A stretch of DNA of 64,000 nucleotides, taken from the NCBI GenBank assembly GCA_036253495.1, contig GCA_036253495.1_4125.1, one strand, 5' to 3'. Of this stretch, positions 11,593 to 38,237 are shown piece after piece. The DNA comes from a phage. Within the stretch, counting starts at the first letter, position 1; the number at the start of each line of letters is the position of its first letter. Made by a program: the position numbers and the translations under genes. The notes under the pieces are model-generated. The model was not told the origin of the DNA, did not search any database, and was given only the letters and a program-made list of their open reading frames with translations.

Positions 11593-12081
11593 TTATACGG
11601 ATTCAACAATCCTTGCCATTTTTTCAGCACGAGAAGTTGTTTGACGATACCAAGCGGAATCACGCATTTCTTTGCCAGCGGTTTTATAATCACCACGACC
11701 CAATGCTGCCATTGCTTTCTTAAAGTTCAATACACGAGATTTACCCATTTGGAATACCATCATCCAAAGTACACGTTGTACTTGAATAGGTGCAGTCATT
11801 CCGAATTGATCGTAAATCTCTTTTGCTTCTCTGTATGCATTTAGGGAATCTTTTTGAAGTAATGCTTCAGCTTCAGCTTCCGTTAGCCCTGCACTGAAAT
11901 TTTCACCTTTTAGTACTAAGTGACCATATCCAATGGTATCTAGTCCTAGGCTATCTTTATAAACTCTGAATTTACCATTCTTGAAATAACCTAATTTAGT
12001 TTGGAAAGCAATAGTACCTTCAAACTCTTTAATTTCTTTCAAATACTGTGCATCATCAGGTTTAATTTCCCATTTACTCAT
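11593..12081 (-). CDS. e: T4-type lysozyme (endolysin, GH24)
   Basis: 162 aa; YKDSLGLDTIGYGHL, VFQMGKSRV and SAWYRQTTSRAEKMARIV align to T4 lysozyme motifs (YKDTEGYYTIGIGHL, VFQMGETGV, SRWYNQTPNRAKRVI). Confidence 0.85.
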   Translation of the reverse strand: MSKWEIKPDDAQYLKEIKEFEGTIAFQTKLGYFKNGKFRVYKDSLGLDTIGYGHLVLKGENFSAGLTEAEAEALLQKDSLNAYREAKEIYDQFGMTAPIQVQRVLWMMVFQMGKSRVLNFKKAMAALGRGDYKTAGKEMRDSAWYRQTTSRAEKMARIVESV

Positions 12082-12115: not shown

Positions 12116-14779
12116 TTATTGACATGCCTCAATTCTACGTGCCATTAACTCTGCACGACGAGTTGTTTGACGATACCAAGCGGAACTACGTATATGAGCA
12201 GCAGCACCACGATAATCACCTTTAGCTAAACATCCAAGCATACCCTTGAATTTTTGAACTTTGTATTTGCCCATTTGGAATACCATTTGACATAGTACTT
12301 GTTGAGCAATAACAGGTGTTTTTAAATCCCAGGCCGCATATATTGATTTGGCATCATTAATTGCTTGCGTACTGTCTCGTACTAATATTGCTTCAGCTTC
12401 TGCTTCAGTTATACCACCAGAAAAATCTTCACCTCCGACAATAAGGTGTCCATATCCAATTGTAGGGAATCCACGGCTATCAATATAACGCCAGAATTTT
12501 CCATTTCTGAAATATCCAAGTGCTGTTTGATATTGGATAGTACCTTCGTGTTCTTTAAGTTCGGATATAAATTGGGAATCACCCGGAGCAACTTTCCATC
12601 CAACGGCAGTTTTATCAACATTACCTACATTATAATTTTGTTCAACTTTTGGAGCGGTTCCTGCATTTCGAGGCTTACGTTCTCTACGACGAGGAACATG
12701 ACGAGAACCACGTTGTGAATAACCAGTTCCAATAGTTCGTATGCGAGTTGATATTACCAATTCATCACTATCAGCAGATGGTCTGACCACATCTTTAGGG
12801 TTATTTTGTGTTGATGGTTGACCACCAATTAATGTTTTATTCGCCGCAGCAGAACCCTGACCAGTTACAGTTGTGTAGAATAATCCAGGATCAACTGAAC
12901 CACTAAAACCATAGATATTAGATGAGCGAACTCTTATTTCAAATCGTAATATACCATTAGCAGTTCCTATTACTTGTCCTTTTTCAACAACATCTTTATT
13001 GAATAGGTCAGAAGTTAAACCATAGAAAACAGATTTATAACCAGATTTATGCTCAACAATAAGAGCATCACCACTGATACCAACAATCCCACCATCTGGT
13101 GCAACCACACTTCCACGGGCTTGAATTTCCCATCCACTACTATCACGCTTGGTTCCATTCTCGGTCGTTACACCCTTACCCCAATAACCATTCTGGCGAA
13201 TAGTACCGCTACATGGCATAAGCATATGCAAACCTTCAAACGTCTGCGAATAACCAGTCATTCCTGGTTCAGCCGCCATTAAATCTTGTGTTTGAACTTC
13301 ACTTGTCTCTGGGGCATAATTTACAAATTGAATTGCTTCTGTTTCTTGTTGCTCTGCAAGTGTAGGTTGAACATCATTTGCTGGTTGTGGCTCAACTGGA
13401 GATGTTGTACTACCTTGACCACCACCACTTATACCAGGATCAACCCTATCACCGTGGTTTTCTGCATCTTTCCAGTTAGCAATCATATGAATGTGGTCAT
13501 TAAGACCCACTGATGGAGTTTTGAAGTCAGGAGCCATGAATGCAGCACTACCACTATTACCTGCACTATCAACCGTTAGGTTTTGACCACCACCACTAAT
13601 GTTAACGGATGAACCACCAATAACGTTTGCTGAGGATGAACCTTTAATAGATGCAGTTGACCCAGCCGTAATATCAGTACTGCTACCACTTTGAAGACGT
13701 AATGAAGCACCAGTAACCAAACGAAGATCAGCACCAGAATTAATTACAACCTGACCATTGACCTTAGCATCCAAATTACCGACCAATTCCAGTTTGGTAT
13801 TTCCACCAACACGAGTATTGAAGTCTTGCCCACTTTCAATATTATAAGAACGACCTGCAACCATGTTAATATCTTGACCTGCACGAATGTTTATGTTTTT
13901 ATCACAGTGCATTTCAATATCACCATCGCCAGTGAATTTAATACGAGCCGTACCATCACGGTTAATTAATAAAACATTACCAGTGGCTTCAGAAATAAGA
14001 AGTTGTGCACCACTACGTGTTTTAATAACAATACCTTCATTCTTTCTGGAACCAACACGAGTGTCATTAACTGGGTTGTTAAATTGTGTGTCTTGGTATC
14101 CATCAGGGTCTTGATCCCATGTTGGCTTGGTCAATTCTTCTTCTGTATATCCATCATCAAGAATAAAACTATTACCACGAGGTGTACTCATACCATATAC
14201 AGTACTGGTTGTTTGACGAGTACTGCTGCGGTTTGCAACACCTGCTTCATCATCGTATAATAAGTTTTGTTTTTTCAATCCTTCAACAGCAGGAACGTTA
14301 ATATATTTGTCTTGCATGTCAGTTGTGATTGTGTTACGATCATAATCAGTTACTGGTAATGGCATATCAGTACCATTGTAATTGGTATCCGCAGTTGCCA
14401 TTCCAGGAACCATTGTATTCATACGTTGGTCATAAACACATCCAATCCAGTAAGCTTGGAATGTACGTGCTTGTGCAAAAATAACAACAACAGTACATCC
14501 CACATCTGGTGGAACGGCCCAAAAACCATAACCCTTTGGATATTGTCCATAACTATCTGCACTCGGTATTCCTGGAGTTTTGCCAGCAAACGGAGCCATA
14601 TAAGAAGCTTCAATCCATGAATCTTTAGAGTTTTTATCACTTTGTGAACCTTGTATCCATACTTTTAGCTTACCAGATTTCGTAGGATCACGGTTATCCA
14701 TAACGGTTGCTAATTGTGGATAAGATGGGTCAAAACGACCCAACTGTTCCTTTGCATACTTTTTACTTGTATCTGCCAT
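12116..14779 (-). CDS. baseplate hub/spike protein (gp5-like) with internal M23-peptidase-like region and C-terminal T4-type lysozyme domain
   Basis: 887 aa; Gly/Ser-rich repetitive central region (beta-helix-like); segment GYWGKGV...HKSGYKSVFYGL...GQVIGTANGILRFEI resembles LytM/M23; C-terminal 150 aa paralogous to the adjacent lysozyme. Confidence 0.7.
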   Translation of the reverse strand: MADTSKKYAKEQLGRFDPSYPQLATVMDNRDPTKSGKLKVWIQGSQSDKNSKDSWIEASYMAPFAGKTPGIPSADSYGQYPKGYGFWAVPPDVGCTVVVIFAQARTFQAYWIGCVYDQRMNTMVPGMATADTNYNGTDMPLPVTDYDRNTITTDMQDKYINVPAVEGLKKQNLLYDDEAGVANRSSTRQTTSTVYGMSTPRGNSFILDDGYTEEELTKPTWDQDPDGYQDTQFNNPVNDTRVGSRKNEGIVIKTRSGAQLLISEATGNVLLINRDGTARIKFTGDGDIEMHCDKNINIRAGQDINMVAGRSYNIESGQDFNTRVGGNTKLELVGNLDAKVNGQVVINSGADLRLVTGASLRLQSGSSTDITAGSTASIKGSSSANVIGGSSVNISGGGQNLTVDSAGNSGSAAFMAPDFKTPSVGLNDHIHMIANWKDAENHGDRVDPGISGGGQGSTTSPVEPQPANDVQPTLAEQQETEAIQFVNYAPETSEVQTQDLMAAEPGMTGYSQTFEGLHMLMPCSGTIRQNGYWGKGVTTENGTKRDSSGWEIQARGSVVAPDGGIVGISGDALIVEHKSGYKSVFYGLTSDLFNKDVVEKGQVIGTANGILRFEIRVRSSNIYGFSGSVDPGLFYTTVTGQGSAAANKTLIGGQPSTQNNPKDVVRPSADSDELVISTRIRTIGTGYSQRGSRHVPRRRERKPRNAGTAPKVEQNYNVGNVDKTAVGWKVAPGDSQFISELKEHEGTIQYQTALGYFRNGKFWRYIDSRGFPTIGYGHLIVGGEDFSGGITEAEAEAILVRDSTQAINDAKSIYAAWDLKTPVIAQQVLCQMVFQMGKYKVQKFKGMLGCLAKGDYRGAAAHIRSSAWYRQTTRRAELMARRIEACQ

Positions 14780-32349: not shown

Positions 32350-33525
32350 ATGTCACAACTACTAAATGAATCCAAATGGGTAGCAGTTAAAGAGAAACTA
32401 GTTGAAGGTCTTCAAGGTACTCGTAAATCCGTAATGGAAACCGTTCTTGATAACCATCGTAAAGTTATGCTACAAGAATCTGCAACCGCTGGTGCAACTT
32501 CTGCTGGTAACATCGCTACTCTAAACAAAGTGATTCTACCAATTATGCGTCGTGTAATGCCAACCGTTATCGCTAACGAAATCATCGGTGTTCAACCAAT
32601 GACTGGCCCAGTTGGTCAAATCCACACTCTACGTGTTCAATACGCTGACAACGCACCAGGTGTTGTAGCTGGCGAAGAAATGCTATCTCCATTCAAGATT
32701 GCTAAATCTTACACTGGTGAGCTAAACTCTGACAACAGCAACCCACAAGCTGCTCCTACTAGCCAACTAGAAGGTACTATGGGTCGTCGCGTTAACATCC
32801 GTATCCTACGTGAAACTGTTGAAGCGAAATCTCGTCGTCTATCTGCACGCTGGACTGTTGAATCTGCACAAGATGCACAATCTCAACATGGTATCGACGT
32901 TGAAGCTGAACTAATGGCTGCTATTGCACAAGAAGTTACCGTTGAAATCGACCAAGAACTACTAAGCCGTCTACGTGCACTACCTGGTGCTGCTGCTGTA
33001 ACTTATGACCAATCTAAAGTTACTGGCGTTGCAACCTTCGTAGGTGATGAGCACGCTGCTCTAGCTACCCTAATCAACCGTCAAGCGAACGAAGTTGCTC
33101 GTCGTACCAAACGTGGTGCTGCGAACTGGGCTGTTGTTTCCCCAACCGCTCTAACTATTCTACAATCTGCAACTACTTCTAGCTTTGCACGTACTACTGA
33201 AGGTACTTTTGAAGCACCAACTAACGTTAAATTCGTTGGTACTCTAAACAGCACCATGCGTATCTTCGTTGATACCTATGCTTCAGATGTTGAAGATATC
33301 CTAATCGGTTACAAAGGTAATGCAGAAACTGACGCTGGTGTTTTCTACTGCCCATACATCCCATTGATGGCATCTGGTACTGTTATGGACCCTAACACTG
33401 GAGAACTCGTTACAACCTTCTTGACACGCTATGGCTACGTCCAGCTAACAGATTCTACTAGTTCACTAGGTAATGCAGCAGATTATTATTCTAAAATTGC
33501 TATCAAAAACGTTACTTTCATGTAA
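32350..33525 (+). CDS. 23: major capsid protein (gp23-like, compact 391-aa form)
   Basis: IANEIIGVQPMTGPVGQIHTLR, IEAKSRRLSA and YKGNAETDAGVFYCPYIPL align with T4 gp23 IAFDICGVQPMNSPTGQVFALR, IEAKSRQLKA, YKGPNEMDAGIYYAPYVAL. Confidence 0.9.
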   Translation: MSQLLNESKWVAVKEKLVEGLQGTRKSVMETVLDNHRKVMLQESATAGATSAGNIATLNKVILPIMRRVMPTVIANEIIGVQPMTGPVGQIHTLRVQYADNAPGVVAGEEMLSPFKIAKSYTGELNSDNSNPQAAPTSQLEGTMGRRVNIRILRETVEAKSRRLSARWTVESAQDAQSQHGIDVEAELMAAIAQEVTVEIDQELLSRLRALPGAAAVTYDQSKVTGVATFVGDEHAALATLINRQANEVARRTKRGAANWAVVSPTALTILQSATTSSFARTTEGTFEAPTNVKFVGTLNSTMRIFVDTYASDVEDILIGYKGNAETDAGVFYCPYIPLMASGTVMDPNTGELVTTFLTRYGYVQLTDSTSSLGNAADYYSKIAIKNVTFM

Positions 33526-33580
33526 TTTACAAAAAAGTAGAAAAAAGCAAAAACACAGAATTAAATTCTTTTCAAAAAAA

Positions 33581-33612
33581 GGGACTCTTCGGAGTCCCTT
33601 TTCTTTTTTTTC
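33581..33612 (+). terminator. rho-independent terminator after capsid gene
   Basis: GGGACTC-TTCG-GAGTCCC hairpin followed by a T-rich run; A-run upstream. Confidence 0.7.
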
Positions 33613-33621
33613 AAAAAAGTG

Positions 33622-33650
33622 TTGACATAGATCCTAGAAATAGATATAAT
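33622..33650 (+). promoter_or_regulatory. consensus sigma70 promoter (TTGACA-17 nt-TATAAT)
   Basis: Exact -35 and -10 hexamers with 17-nt spacer, about 35 nt upstream of ATG 33686. Confidence 0.7.
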
Positions 33651-33685
33651 ACGCGTATAGTAATTAATGTATAGGATATGAAGAA

Positions 33686-34825
33686 ATGAACAAAGAGCGG
33701 TTTGTTGAAAGTATGAATGAAAAGTATTCGTCATTGGGAATTAACGGTGACTTTGATTTCTCAAATTTAGTTTTTAAGACAAGTAAGATGACCGTAAAAT
33801 GTAACCACTGTGGTAAAGAAAACACAAAAAGTGCATTACGCCATTTGGAATGTACCTGCAAATGTTATTCAAATCTTTCACAGAAAATATCAAAAGACGA
33901 ATTTATTGATAGAATGAATGAAAAATTTGGTGTTGGTGTTTATAAATTTGATAAACTTTTCTTTTTGAATGTTAGGGATGTTATTGAAGTATACTGTTCC
34001 AAACACGAAGGATACTTTAAAACAACCCCATACAATATGAGTCGTAGTGTGAATGGGTGTAACATTTGCATTCCAAATAAAAAAATGAATCATGATGAAT
34101 TTGTTTATAGATGTAACGCGTTATATCCGTATTTGGATTTTAACCGAGTTGATGAAAATGGTGATAAAATAACAAAATTTGTAGGAACAACAAAGTATAT
34201 AAAAGTATGGTGTAATAGACATAATGGAATTTGGGATGTTTATGCAAATACTTTGTTGAAAGGTAAAAATCATTGTGGTATATGTACCGGACGCAAACTT
34301 AGAACCAAAGAACAATTTGTAGAATTAGCATCTAAGATTCATGATAACAAATATGATTATTCAGAAGTTGAATATAAAAATAGTGAACATAAGGTGAAAA
34401 TTATTTGTACAGAATGTAATGAATCATTTTCACAACAGCCAAAAGCTCACTTATCTGGTAGAGGGTGTCCGGTATGTGGGAAGTATGGATATCAACAAAA
34501 TAAGCCAGGTTATTTTTATATACAAAAATTAACTCCAAAAAATATAAATGAAGTAGCAATTTATAAAATTGGAATTACTGGAGATTTATTCAGAAGAATG
34601 TATGAACAATCTCTACATTCAGAATATTTTCATGAGTTTATCAGAACTGAATTCTTTAGTGATGGTATAAAACCACTGGAGTTAGAAACACTTATAAAAA
34701 AAACTATTACATGTGGAATAATAACAGAAAATGAATTACAAGATGGATTTAGTGAAACGATTTCATCAAATGATGTTTATGAAGTTCACAAAATCGTAAA
34801 TAAATTTATAGAGAGTGAAAAATGA
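33686..34825 (+). CDS. GIY-YIG-like (T5orf172-type) protein with three N-terminal zinc-ribbon-like repeats; probable freestanding homing-endonuclease-like gene
   Basis: Three modules of about 75 aa ending in C..H...G.GC..C; C-terminal GYFYIQKL...IYKIGITGDLFRR fits the GIY-YIG/T5orf172 pattern. Confidence 0.5.
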   Translation: MNKERFVESMNEKYSSLGINGDFDFSNLVFKTSKMTVKCNHCGKENTKSALRHLECTCKCYSNLSQKISKDEFIDRMNEKFGVGVYKFDKLFFLNVRDVIEVYCSKHEGYFKTTPYNMSRSVNGCNICIPNKKMNHDEFVYRCNALYPYLDFNRVDENGDKITKFVGTTKYIKVWCNRHNGIWDVYANTLLKGKNHCGICTGRKLRTKEQFVELASKIHDNKYDYSEVEYKNSEHKVKIICTECNESFSQQPKAHLSGRGCPVCGKYGYQQNKPGYFYIQKLTPKNINEVAIYKIGITGDLFRRMYEQSLHSEYFHEFIRTEFFSDGIKPLELETLIKKTITCGIITENELQDGFSETISSNDVYEVHKIVNKFIESEK

Positions 34826-35319
34826 AATATAAAAATTTACAAAAAATGAAATATTATGCTGTTCTTCATGGCGAAGAAGGGGATGACTGGGCTTTTTATA
34901 ATTATGATAAATTAGTTGAAGGATATGCTTATAATTTTGATGATGATTATTATCAATTAAGAATTCAATATGATGAATATATAATATTTTCTGACAATTT
35001 CTGCACTAACTCAACTTCCATTGGTATTGGATCTATCAAAAATGAACTTACAAATCAAATAGTAAAGTGTAGAAATAAATCAAATGAAGTTATTGTGTAT
35101 ACGGAAGGTGCAAACTATTCATCTGGTATGAAACTGATCGGACGACCTAATTTCGATAGTACTGACGAACTATTTCAAATATCAACAGTATGTAATATTG
35201 ATTGGGATAAAGTCAAAGAAGCATTTCGTATATTGGATGAATTGAATGAGATAATCAATTTTAAATATTATCTAACTAAACCATCTGAATCTCTAGAATT
35301 AACTAATTTACCGAAATAA
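34822..35319 (+). CDS. hypothetical protein
   Basis: 165-aa ORF, start overlaps preceding stop. Confidence 0.4.
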   Translation: MKYKNLQKMKYYAVLHGEEGDDWAFYNYDKLVEGYAYNFDDDYYQLRIQYDEYIIFSDNFCTNSTSIGIGSIKNELTNQIVKCRNKSNEVIVYTEGANYSSGMKLIGRPNFDSTDELFQISTVCNIDWDKVKEAFRILDELNEIINFKYYLTKPSESLELTNLPK

Positions 35320-35339
35320 CAATAAGGAGGTTAACACGG

Positions 35340-35690
35340 ATGTTAACTGTATACATTTTTAAAAAAGAAGAGTACTTAAAGAGTCAGTACTCAAAAATTG
35401 AGATCAATGTTCCTTATGGAACGTTGGTGGGTTATGATGAGGCTACGGAGACGTTGTATTACAATGATGATCGTCTGGATTACAGTACTGATCATTTTAT
35501 AGAAGATATATTGAGTACTGATTCAGAAGACATGTTGTATGAAGAATATATTGACAAATACAAAGAACGCATGTCGAAGTTACATGCTGATGCTCCAGTA
35601 CTGAACACTCCTAAAACCCCATCCGAGTTTGATCCTCAAAATCCATTTCAACGCCTGATAGATGCGGGTGTAAACTTCAGAATTAGTTAA
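35340..35690 (+). CDS. hypothetical acidic protein
   Basis: 116-aa ORF with GGAGG RBS. Confidence 0.45.
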   Translation: MLTVYIFKKEEYLKSQYSKIEINVPYGTLVGYDEATETLYYNDDRLDYSTDHFIEDILSTDSEDMLYEEYIDKYKERMSKLHADAPVLNTPKTPSEFDPQNPFQRLIDAGVNFRIS

Positions 35691-35720
35691 TAATAAATAT
35701 CTCCATACTAGGAGATATCT

Positions 35721-36029
35721 ATGTCACAAATATGTTATGTAATCACTAATAGTGCATGGCCTGAATATGTAAAGATAGGCTTCACTACAAAATCAGAGAT
35801 GAAAGAGCGTTTAGGTGTTTACCAGACTGCTTCACCATTCAGGGATTTTGAGGTATACCATCAGGTTATGTTTGACGATGCACGAACAGCAGAAAAGGAA
35901 GTGCATAAGAGATTAAAGCAAATGAATGCAACAAGGCAACCTAACTCTGAATGGTTCAAGATGCCTAAAAAGTTAGCTGCAAATATTATTGATTCCGTAT
36001 TGGATGATATGGAAAATGATTTACTATAG
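35721..36029 (+). CDS. small T5orf172/GIY-YIG-like domain protein
   Basis: 102 aa; CYVITN...YVKIGFTT...R...E..VH..L...SEWF pattern. Confidence 0.5.
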   Translation: MSQICYVITNSAWPEYVKIGFTTKSEMKERLGVYQTASPFRDFEVYHQVMFDDARTAEKEVHKRLKQMNATRQPNSEWFKMPKKLAANIIDSVLDDMENDLL

Positions 36030-36069
36030 ATATAAATATGATATATATTAAACAAAAAAGGATTTTTAC

Positions 36070-37680
36070 ATGAGCATAAGTTTTAATCATCCACAGAATA
36101 CTGTAACCAGTACTGCGGAAAATGGTTCATTGAATCTAATAGTACTAGGTGGTACACCAACTAATCCTCGACCAATTAGAATGAATTCTTCATCGGTAAT
36201 ACTACCTGTTCAGGATTTGCCTGTTGGTGAAGCAGGGGCGATAGTATTTGACAAAAACACTCTTACTTTGAAGTATCATGATGGTACTAACTGGATTGAA
36301 ATGTTAAGTGCTGCCGATGTAGTTGCACCAATTGAACAACAGATTCAGGATATCAATTCTATACTTGGAACTAAGGTTGATAGAGTAACCTATTCAATGT
36401 CATCAATTCCAACTGCTTCTATTAGCGGAACTACATTGAATATTATATTCCCAACACCTTCATCAATTCAAGGTGCTAATGGTTTGTACACGAGTGCTAA
36501 ACCTGGATGTATTATGCATTATAGCTTGACATCTGGACAAACCGTTGCTAGTATACGTGAACAAATGTCGGGTAGTACTGGTGGACAGAGTGGTCGTGAC
36601 GGCTCCCAAGCTAAACCGTGGAAAACATCCGATGGTTGGTGTTTTGCTGATGGTATGTGGTGGCAGTGGCAAGGTGCTAATGGTACAATAACCAAACAAG
36701 TACCAAACTTGAACCGTGATGGATATTTAAGAAGTATCACCACTAGTGGTATAACCAAAACTGACGCAATGATAGCAGGTGGTGGTTCATTAACACCGAG
36801 TACTTTCACTATTCCAGACCACATTCATGGGACTGGTAAAATGTTAGGTACTAACGGTAGTGATGCGGATGATGCTGTTTTCATTAGTGGTAGAGCATGG
36901 AATGATGGCAGAGGCTATCGTGGTCCTGCAATCTTTGGTGATAAGAATGCCCGTATGGAGTTTAGTGTAGATGGTAACAATGCAGCAACTGCATTATCAA
37001 CTTCACAACCAATTTATGATGATGCGAATGCACGCACAATAACCCATAACCATACAGTAACAGGTATTGACGTACCACACTTTAACACTGCAATTTTGTA
37101 TAACATTTCCGAACCATCAGTTGCGATGAGCGAAAATACTGCAAATGGTCGTTTTGTTCGTAAAACTGGTGATACAATGTCTGGTGAATTATACATTGCT
37201 AACCGTGCTGGTATTCGTGGTGGTGGTGATTTGTACTTATTCTTCCAGAACGCTAGTGGTGGTGAACGTGCCGCAGTATACTTCCAAGGTAATGAACTAA
37301 GACTTCGTGCTGGTGGTGGTGCTGTAACAGTTAACAGTGGTGGTTCTTTGTATATACCAGGTTCATTAACAGTTAACGCAGCATCAGCAACTGTCGGAAC
37401 GAAACATATAGTACGTTCTGTTAACGGCTCAACTGCTGGTTCTGATGGTAATGTAAATATATCTGTCGGATCAGTACAAGATGTACGTTTTTTCAATCAA
37501 GATTATTATTGGCCGGGTGGTAATGAGTTATCATGGCACTTTGTGTGTCCATCAGGTGCAGTACTAAGTGGTATAAATGTACAAGATGTTGGTAAAAACT
37601 CTGCTGATAACATTGGTGGTGTGAATTATAAATTTATACAAATTTTGGTTGATGGTAGCTGGAGAAATATAAACGGATAA
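36070..37680 (+). CDS. tail-fiber-like protein (putative receptor-binding protein)
   Basis: 536 aa, Gly-rich; RKTGDTMSGELYI motif of the kind seen in phage tail fibres; TATAAATA at 36031-36038 upstream. Confidence 0.55.
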   Translation: MSISFNHPQNTVTSTAENGSLNLIVLGGTPTNPRPIRMNSSSVILPVQDLPVGEAGAIVFDKNTLTLKYHDGTNWIEMLSAADVVAPIEQQIQDINSILGTKVDRVTYSMSSIPTASISGTTLNIIFPTPSSIQGANGLYTSAKPGCIMHYSLTSGQTVASIREQMSGSTGGQSGRDGSQAKPWKTSDGWCFADGMWWQWQGANGTITKQVPNLNRDGYLRSITTSGITKTDAMIAGGGSLTPSTFTIPDHIHGTGKMLGTNGSDADDAVFISGRAWNDGRGYRGPAIFGDKNARMEFSVDGNNAATALSTSQPIYDDANARTITHNHTVTGIDVPHFNTAILYNISEPSVAMSENTANGRFVRKTGDTMSGELYIANRAGIRGGGDLYLFFQNASGGERAAVYFQGNELRLRAGGGAVTVNSGGSLYIPGSLTVNAASATVGTKHIVRSVNGSTAGSDGNVNISVGSVQDVRFFNQDYYWPGGNELSWHFVCPSGAVLSGINVQDVGKNSADNIGGVNYKFIQILVDGSWRNING

Positions 37681-37683
37681 TTT

Positions 37684-38139
37684 ATGATAACTTTAAAAAA
37701 TTTTAAATCATATGAAGGTAATGACCCTAAATTAAAAAAATTAAATGTTGCTTTTTTAATTTCAGAATGTGGAATGGATTGGTATGATTCTCAAAAATTA
37801 TTTTCCGAAAATACAATGAAAATTGTGGTTGATAAAAATAATATAGTTTGCAATGCAACACGTGATATTACTATGATGTATCCAGTGGATGCTAGTGTAT
37901 ATGAAATTGAATATGATGGTGATGGACATGAACTAAGAGGAAAAATATATCATGAAGAAGATGGCACTTTTTCTGAAAGACCACCTCGTAAACCTACCCC
38001 ACAACAAATATTCAATGATTTGAGTGAACGTAAAAAAGTACTGGACATGAAGAAAGAATTCGATATGTTGAGCACTGAAGAAGCTGCTGAGTACGAGAAG
38101 CTAATCTCTGATCTTAAAGAAGTTTTAAACCTTCTTTAA
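37684..38139 (+). CDS. hypothetical protein, possible tail-fiber assembly/chaperone partner
   Basis: 151-aa ORF starting 4 nt after the fibre gene stop. Confidence 0.3.
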   Translation: MITLKNFKSYEGNDPKLKKLNVAFLISECGMDWYDSQKLFSENTMKIVVDKNNIVCNATRDITMMYPVDASVYEIEYDGDGHELRGKIYHEEDGTFSERPPRKPTPQQIFNDLSERKKVLDMKKEFDMLSTEEAAEYEKLISDLKEVLNLL

Positions 38140-38237
38140 AAATTTGGGACACATTGAGAAGTACTGATATAATAGAGACATTCCACGAGGAACATTGTGG
38201 AGTGTCTATTTTTTCATTAACACATGGAGATACAACA

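Follow-up and report, generated by a model that had tools for sequence, protein, structure and literature searches.

A probable T5orf172-class homing endonuclease cassette beside the capsid gene of an Asteriusvirus-like jumbo coliphage

What kind of gene sits directly behind the major capsid gene of a jumbo coliphage, in a place that some of its relatives leave empty? The gene in question encodes a 379-aa protein and lies within a 64-kb window (64,000 nucleotides of contig GCA_036253495.1_4125.1, the whole stretch of DNA analyzed here), which similarity to known phages places as a segment of an Asteriusvirus-like jumbo coliphage of the 121Q/PBECO4/A4 group. Escherichia phage A4 is the nearest deposited relative, being ~99% identical over most of the window, and 121Q and PBECO4 are also related. 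An earlier note on this DNA had proposed a freestanding GIY-YIG gene, similar to homing endonucleases, between conserved structural genes, and our comparisons support that proposal: the region is probably a freestanding T5orf172-class homing endonuclease cassette, T5orf172 being one branch of the GIY-YIG superfamily. Judged by its sequence, the gene is of a known type, fitting the family of T5orf172 homing endonuclease genes (HEGs) with zinc fingers on every testable feature.

The gene order across the locus is protease, scaffold, gp23-like capsid, the 379-aa open reading frame (ORF), a 165-aa ORF, a 116-aa gene, a 102-aa T5orf172 gene and a tail fiber gene. The stop of the gp23-type major capsid gene (32350..33525, +; Pfam Gp23, E=5.4e-90) is separated by 160 nt from the start of the 379-aa T5orf172-type nuclease gene (33686..34825, +; identified from the ORF list, Pfam, phrog_681 and an AlphaFold model). 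Within that gap lies the intrinsic terminator of the capsid gene (33577..33611, +), a hairpin at 33577-33602 with an 11-bp stem and a GNRA-like loop that is followed by a T-run, and the placement of the ORF directly after the capsid gene and its terminator was thereby confirmed. The promoter that had been ascribed to the gene proved equally real: the sigma-70 element TTGACA-17-TATAAT (33622..33650, +) matches the consensus at 12 of 12 positions and is the only perfect occurrence on either strand of the window, where a search allowing one mismatch returned 5 matches against 1.66 expected. Transcription is predicted to start at ~33657, giving a leader of ~28 nt, and no terminator was detected further downstream. 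Together, the promoter, the nuclease gene and the 165-aa ORF that follows it (hereafter the partner ORF) form a cassette of ~1.73 kb (33612..35339, +) that is absent from PBECO4 and low in G+C (29% in the nuclease gene and 27% in the partner ORF, vs 35.7% in the window and 43.9% in the capsid gene). The capsid terminator, which in the loci compared is kept both where the site is occupied and in the empty PBECO4 locus, is the left border of the cassette and lies outside it. No paralogue of the nuclease was found within the 64-kb window.

The predicted nuclease domain occupies the C-terminal residues 269-379 (34490..34825, +) and carries the motifs GYFY278, IY293KIG, R303R304, E307, H316, E334 and GFSE357. 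The protein matches phrog_681 (‘endonuclease’) over residues 13-376 with E=2.5e-58; the part of phrog_681 that aligns with the nuclease domain is also matched by the window's own 102-aa protein, a bona fide T5orf172 member. Among 30 alignable relatives, 13 match T5orf172 (best E 1.5e-6) and 11 match MUG113 (PF13455), while Y278, Y293, R303/R304, E334 and E357 are conserved in all, or in more than 90%, of the 30 sequences. An AlphaFold2 model of the domain alone, with a predicted local distance difference test score (pLDDT) of 93 and a predicted template modeling score (pTM) of 0.86, adopts a beta-beta-alpha-beta-alpha-alpha arrangement, so that the phrog_681 match, the Pfam matches of relatives, the modeled fold and the conserved motif residues all bear out the C-terminal T5orf172/GIY-YIG-like domain that had been predicted. 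A conserved Glu would correspond to E75 of I-TevI and E180 of Odn, an assignment made without superposition. When the domain was compared by hhalign with the family of the 102-aa T5orf172 protein, the motifs aligned at E=0.016 and a probability of 2.8%, which is not significant, both profiles being of low diversity. The ratio of non-synonymous to synonymous substitution rates (dN/dS) against relatives is 0.11-0.28, alike in the binding and nuclease parts, with dS near saturation. The likeness to the T4 seg genes drawn in the earlier note holds as an analogy but not as membership: the canonical GIY-YIG model (PF01541) gave no match in a Pfam scan of the protein, and that scan, at E<=1, found no NUMOD, IENR1 or helix-turn-helix DNA-binding domain. 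Neither the protein sequence nor family profiles retrieved a solved relative from the PDB, and a Foldseek search of the PDB with the full-length model was uninformative because that multidomain model has a pTM of only 0.37.

Upstream of the nuclease domain lie four tandem homologous modules of 63-72 aa, rather than the three of about 75 aa that had been counted before, as module hidden Markov models (HMMs) and the positions of the zinc ligands make clear. Module 1 (residues 1-66; 33686..33883, +) has the ligands C39xxC42...H53xxC56xC58xC60 in a CapR-like CxxC...CxC pattern; module 2 (residues 67-133; 33884..34084, +) has C104xxH107...C125xxC128; module 3 (residues 134-205; 34085..34300, +) has C176xxH179...C197xxC200; and module 4 (residues 206-268; 34301..34489, +) has C241xxC244...C261xxC264. 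The ribbon of the form C..H...G.GC..C that had been assigned to each module is thus present in modules 2-4 as C-x2-[H/C]...C-x2-C, with 16-17 residues between the ligand pairs, but not in module 1, a CxxC...CxC variant in which the pairs are 13 residues apart (C42 to C56). HMMs built for each module from its column block in an alignment of 30 homologues cross-detect the other modules of the query, the module 3 HMM finding module 1 at 1.7e-6, module 2 at 8.8e-14 and module 4 at 1e-21. In the AlphaFold model, modules 2-4 each consist of a helix, then a beta-hairpin and then a short helix; module 1 is modeled as a helix and two strands without the short helix and at lower confidence (block pLDDT 56-78). 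Module 4 is the closest of the four to the Pfam DUF4379/DUF723 consensus, its residues 219-265 matching DUF4379, which Pfam labels ‘probable treble clef zinc finger’, at E=3.4e-5 and 24.4 bits against a cut-off of 24.5. Among the 30 relatives, Pfam finds DUF4379 in 26, DUF723 in 12 and CapR in 7.

The CapR zinc-finger DNA-binding domain, with its relatives in the T5orf172 HEGs of phage ICP1, was defined by Netter et al. (2021, PMC8096241), who showed that the CapR zinc finger binds DNA. CapR, DUF723 or DUF4379 zinc fingers, often several, are carried by 200 of 229 T5orf172 HEGs (Barth, Dunham and Seed 2023, PMC10448857), and six repeat domains are drawn for phage Helene in the same paper. Because repeated zinc domains are standard architecture there, the array is typical of T5orf172 HEGs and not unusual, as it had been called. 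That such an array would recognize a long composite target site is a reasonable suggestion and already the accepted view.

Between the capsid terminator and the 116-aa gene, relatives show at least five states of the site. It is directly seen to be empty in PBECO4, where the terminator is followed immediately by the ribosome-binding site of the 116-aa gene, and the span of the locus indicates that it is also empty in SD-1/2/6/15, CMSTMSU and fEgEco12, so that ~7 of ~33 Asteriusvirus isolates have an empty site. Three-module alleles of ~1.0 kb occur in slurp01, G17, Sharanji, E9.1 and others; in the four named phages the proteins are 300-306 aa long, lack module 1 and are ~47% identical to the window protein. 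Four-module alleles of ~1.19 kb, with proteins 45-47% identical, are found in A4, 121Q, UB and BF17. The clade of the window, which has the partner ORF, is otherwise represented by only four metagenomic contigs, with protein identities of 91, 72, 64 and 53%. Finally, ph0011 (L009 1619-3217) and UE-S1 (L010 1568-3226) carry at this site an unrelated protein of 532-552 aa with DUF7487 and an MTES_1575 restriction-endonuclease-like region. Checked at the same locus in relatives, the gene is therefore sporadic and not universally conserved, and because ph0011 and UE-S1 carry an unrelated nuclease there, the capsid-proximal site is, as far as these comparisons of gene content reach, a hot spot for different nuclease families. 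A literature search returned no title or abstract addressing this Asteriusvirus locus, and we found neither the hot spot with its several alleles nor the orphan partner ORF described elsewhere.

The promoter shares in this pattern. All seven T5orf172-occupied relatives have an element matching the consensus at 11-12 of 12 positions in the same place, with diverged spacers, and a promoter-like element of 10/12 follows the capsid terminator in ph0011, which has the unrelated nuclease; UE-S1 was left out of the comparison as its extract ended at a TTGACA. The best match in the empty PBECO4 locus is 8/12. Being present in the occupied loci that could be assessed and absent from the empty PBECO4 locus, the promoter is part of the cassette.

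The capsid gene, too, bears what may be a trace of the cassette. Against A4, capsid codons 1-150 of the window show zero differences, whereas codons 301-391 show 33 synonymous and 0 non-synonymous differences, and this hypervariable, purely synonymous 3′ end tract (33250..33525, +), roughly 270 nt long, travels with the nuclease allele. Identity to A4 is essentially 100% up to ~32800, then falls along the 3′ part of the capsid gene to 97, 96, 92, 92 and 74% per successive 100 nt. Within the nuclease gene it is ~55-65%, and precisely at 35340 it recovers to 99-100%. Over the last 90 nt of the capsid gene, A4, which shares its HEG type with 121Q, is identical to 121Q, yet 69 sites separate the two within the first 900 nt; over the same 90 nt, the window is identical to its closest relative, the contig L004, and L005 is nearly identical to L006. 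By these alignments, this end of the gene tracks the nuclease allele and not the genome backbone. The tract is putatively a product of co-conversion, and some of its silent changes may shield the carrier against the enzyme that it encodes.

Comparison with L004 further indicates that the cassette is itself a mosaic. Identity is 98-100% through the four zinc modules and 71-76% in the T5orf172 domain, the DNA of the partner ORF cannot be aligned, and identity is 100% again at 35340; a single block comprising the nuclease domain and the partner ORF was therefore exchanged. One breakpoint of this swap falls at the linker that joins the binding part to the catalytic part, and domain shuffling between T5orf172 HEG alleles has been described by Barth et al. 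(PMC10448857). The joint inheritance of the domain and the partner ORF is no proof of a functional link, because the right breakpoint must fall in conserved flanking sequence.

The partner ORF (34822..35319, +; 165 aa), whose ATG overlaps the stop codon of the nuclease gene (ATGA), is predicted to be translationally coupled to that gene and belongs to the cassette. Its product is 24-28% identical to that of a 207-213-aa ORF directly 3′ of the nuclease gene in L004-L007, with the common motif GRPxFxSxDExFQI, and in L011 a split version of the ORF holds the same position. The orphan family numbers 9 matching proteins in 5.8 billion and, in 6/6 contexts examined, lies behind a nuclease gene of this clade at the capsid-proximal site; Pfam, PHROG, NCBIfam, PADLOC and PDB returned no match to it. 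We also observed that the partner ORF is 100% identical to the NCBI protein VWH97_07480, which is labeled ‘Escherichia coli O157’. The window probably stems from a jumbo phage genome that was submitted as part of a bacterial assembly. One might suppose that the cassette has two components and that the partner ORF acts with the T5orf172 domain, for example as a self-protection or specificity factor or as a modulator of cleavage. The nine-member family, the 6/6 contexts and the joint swap with the nuclease domain are consistent with such a role, which we nonetheless regard as a doubtful proposition with a small chance of being right. Were this so, the element would be a homing endonuclease of the freestanding kind that works with a partner; no family or structure match to the partner was found, and the literature was not searched for precedents.

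If the cassette is a homing endonuclease cassette, its host-type sigma-70 promoter would drive expression, probably early in infection. The four zinc modules, arranged like beads on a string, would by homology to CapR bind a long composite DNA site, and the C-terminal T5orf172 domain would, by homology to Odn, cut nearby DNA in relatives that infect the same cell without carrying this allele; repair by recombination, with the cassette-bearing genome as template, would then copy the cassette together with flanking DNA. The empty, diverged and unrelated-nuclease states of the site and the allele-linked synonymous capsid tract are the traces that homing would leave. Several points weigh against this account. 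Cleavage, binding and homing are inferred for the 379-aa protein, as for all Asteriusvirus alleles, and so is the location of the target. The single-sequence match to Pfam T5orf172 (PF10544) has E=0.0077 and 17.2 bits, below the gathering threshold of 20, and a Foldseek search of the PDB with the nuclease domain model returned nothing significant, its top match being a GIY-YIG UPF0213 protein at E=0.22. The synonymous hypervariability of the capsid 3′ end could, moreover, be explained by ordinary recombination with diverged phages without any nuclease.

These points leave room for other explanations of the locus. The gene might serve competition or exclusion, cutting the DNA of co-infecting relatives or satellites to the benefit of the phage, with spread as a by-product. 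Such use of a T5orf172 protein has a precedent in Odn, which is deployed against PLE, cuts DNA in vitro and depends on a conserved Glu, the E180A mutant being dead (Barth et al. 2021, PMC8263062); a strong promoter of the host type would turn the gene on early, dN/dS of 0.11-0.28 indicates purifying selection, and the gene is kept in most Asteriusvirus isolates, only ~7 of ~33 sites being empty. Homing, however, predicts both the co-travel of flanking sequence and the turnover of alleles at a fixed site, which a defense acting in trans does not need, and no RepA_N or other borrowed targeting domain appeared in the Pfam scan. The two roles are also compatible, as marker exclusion by T4 SegG illustrates, and we consider exclusion as the principal function unlikely.

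The position next to the capsid gene could instead point to a domesticated regulator, whose zinc array would bind phage DNA, perhaps near the capsid operon as CapR of PLE does, so as to tune transcription, with an inactive or vestigial nuclease domain; I-TevI is an autorepressor as well (mentioned in PMC10448857). CapR is an HEG-derived zinc-finger repressor of a capsid operon (PMC8096241), although it lacks the T5orf172 domain entirely. Here that domain retains all conserved motif residues under purifying selection, and an essential regulatory role is contradicted because several viable phages lack the gene; we judge domestication of this kind to be quite improbable. HEGs commonly degenerate once they are fixed, and the gene could likewise be the decaying, non-functional remnant of a past invasion, a view favored by a one-residue deletion in the Cys cluster of module 1 relative to related proteins (CTCKC vs CTCxxC) and by the low confidence of that module, the least confidently modeled part of the protein. 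Yet the 379-codon frame is intact, modules 2-4 have all their zinc ligands, the catalytic motif is preserved, dN/dS is well below 1 and the promoter is perfect, while the recent block exchange between flanks that are ~100% identical indicates continuing movement. Decay is, in our assessment, very improbable, and a homing endonuclease cassette remains the explanation that we favor.

Several neighboring features of the window stand apart from the cassette. The stand-alone 102-aa T5orf172/MUG113 protein (35721..36029, +) has no DNA-binding domain, is conserved in every relative examined, including the cassette-less PBECO4, and matches the PADLOC candidate defense family PDC-S57 (E=3.6e-16). The DNA of the 116-aa and 102-aa genes (35340-36764) is ~73% identical to 121Q and PBECO4, compared with ~92.5% for capsid codons 1-300, so that divergence between lineages is unusually high on the right flank too. 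The 116-aa gene, or its 5′ end, shares a AACAAAGAAGAGT / NKEE[FY] start, which raised the idea of a relic or duplicate of a nuclease module, but the module HMMs gave no significant match to it. A segment of ~700 bp in A4 (L008 39407-40108), which holds A4_16, a 165-aa ‘putative tail fiber chaperone’, is absent from the window at 38139-38143 and is a further indel between the otherwise 99% identical genomes. That the partner ORF, likewise of 165 aa, might be a relocated A4_16 was considered and rejected, there being no similarity between the two. Elsewhere, at 11860-12036 and 12386-12562, the window has 177-nt stretches that are ~70% identical to each other’s A4 counterparts, which suggests an internal duplication in the region of the baseplate-hub/lysozyme gene.

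The locus provides a clean natural example, in jumbo phages of E. coli, of a process described mainly for the Vibrio phage ICP1, in which nuclease genes at the edges of exchanged segments drag part of an essential gene along with them. It does not change current concepts. It does offer material in the form of isolates with an empty site, at least two diverged T5orf172 alleles with three or four modules, an unrelated nuclease at the same site, and a near-isogenic pair, the window phage and A4, that differs almost only here. This makes it tractable for asking how tandem zinc modules specify a target, whether T5orf172 enzymes home, and whether silent recoding of the capsid gene confers immunity.

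Set beside known systems, the protein is 13-16% identical to SLX1 and HIGLE (PDB 7wme, 6seh, 7cq2), structure-specific GIY-YIG nucleases of eukaryotic repair that have RING or PHD partner domains, with no functional relationship implied. Like T4 SegA-G and I-TevI, the present nuclease is encoded by a freestanding gene between conserved phage genes that is polymorphic among relatives, with a pattern of flanking-marker co-conversion and a modular, beads-on-a-string layout that are here read from sequence alone. Unlike them, it has no PF01541 match, its nuclease domain is C-terminal rather than N-terminal, and DNA binding is assigned to zinc-finger repeats and not to NUMOD or helix-turn-helix domains. 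It differs from a CapR-type satellite repressor, which is small, nuclease-free and of the form CxxC-(24-26)-CxC, in having a conserved nuclease domain and spacings of 13 and 16-17 residues. With Odn (ICP1 gp88), the only close functional precedent with nuclease activity in vitro, it shares the class of nuclease domain and the conserved Arg and Glu of the GIY-YIG motifs; Odn, however, uses a RepA_N domain acquired from its target, the origin of the PLE satellite, and serves defense, whereas here a zinc array goes together with a homing-like genomic pattern. In domain layout it closely resembles ICP1 gp53, gp121, gp130, gp165 and gp174 and their relatives, which likewise combine N-terminal tandem zinc fingers with a C-terminal T5orf172 domain. 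T5orf172 HEGs sit at the boundaries of genetic exchange beside essential genes (PMC10448857), and the present gene resembles those of ICP1 in being freestanding next to an essential structural gene, in marking such a boundary and in the shuffling of domains between alleles. It departs from them in its host, an Asteriusvirus jumbo coliphage of a lineage not mentioned in that work, in its four modules, the first of which is CxxC-13-CxC where CapR proper has 24-26 residues between its Cys pairs, and in carrying along, as part of the cassette, an orphan partner ORF translationally coupled to the nuclease gene.

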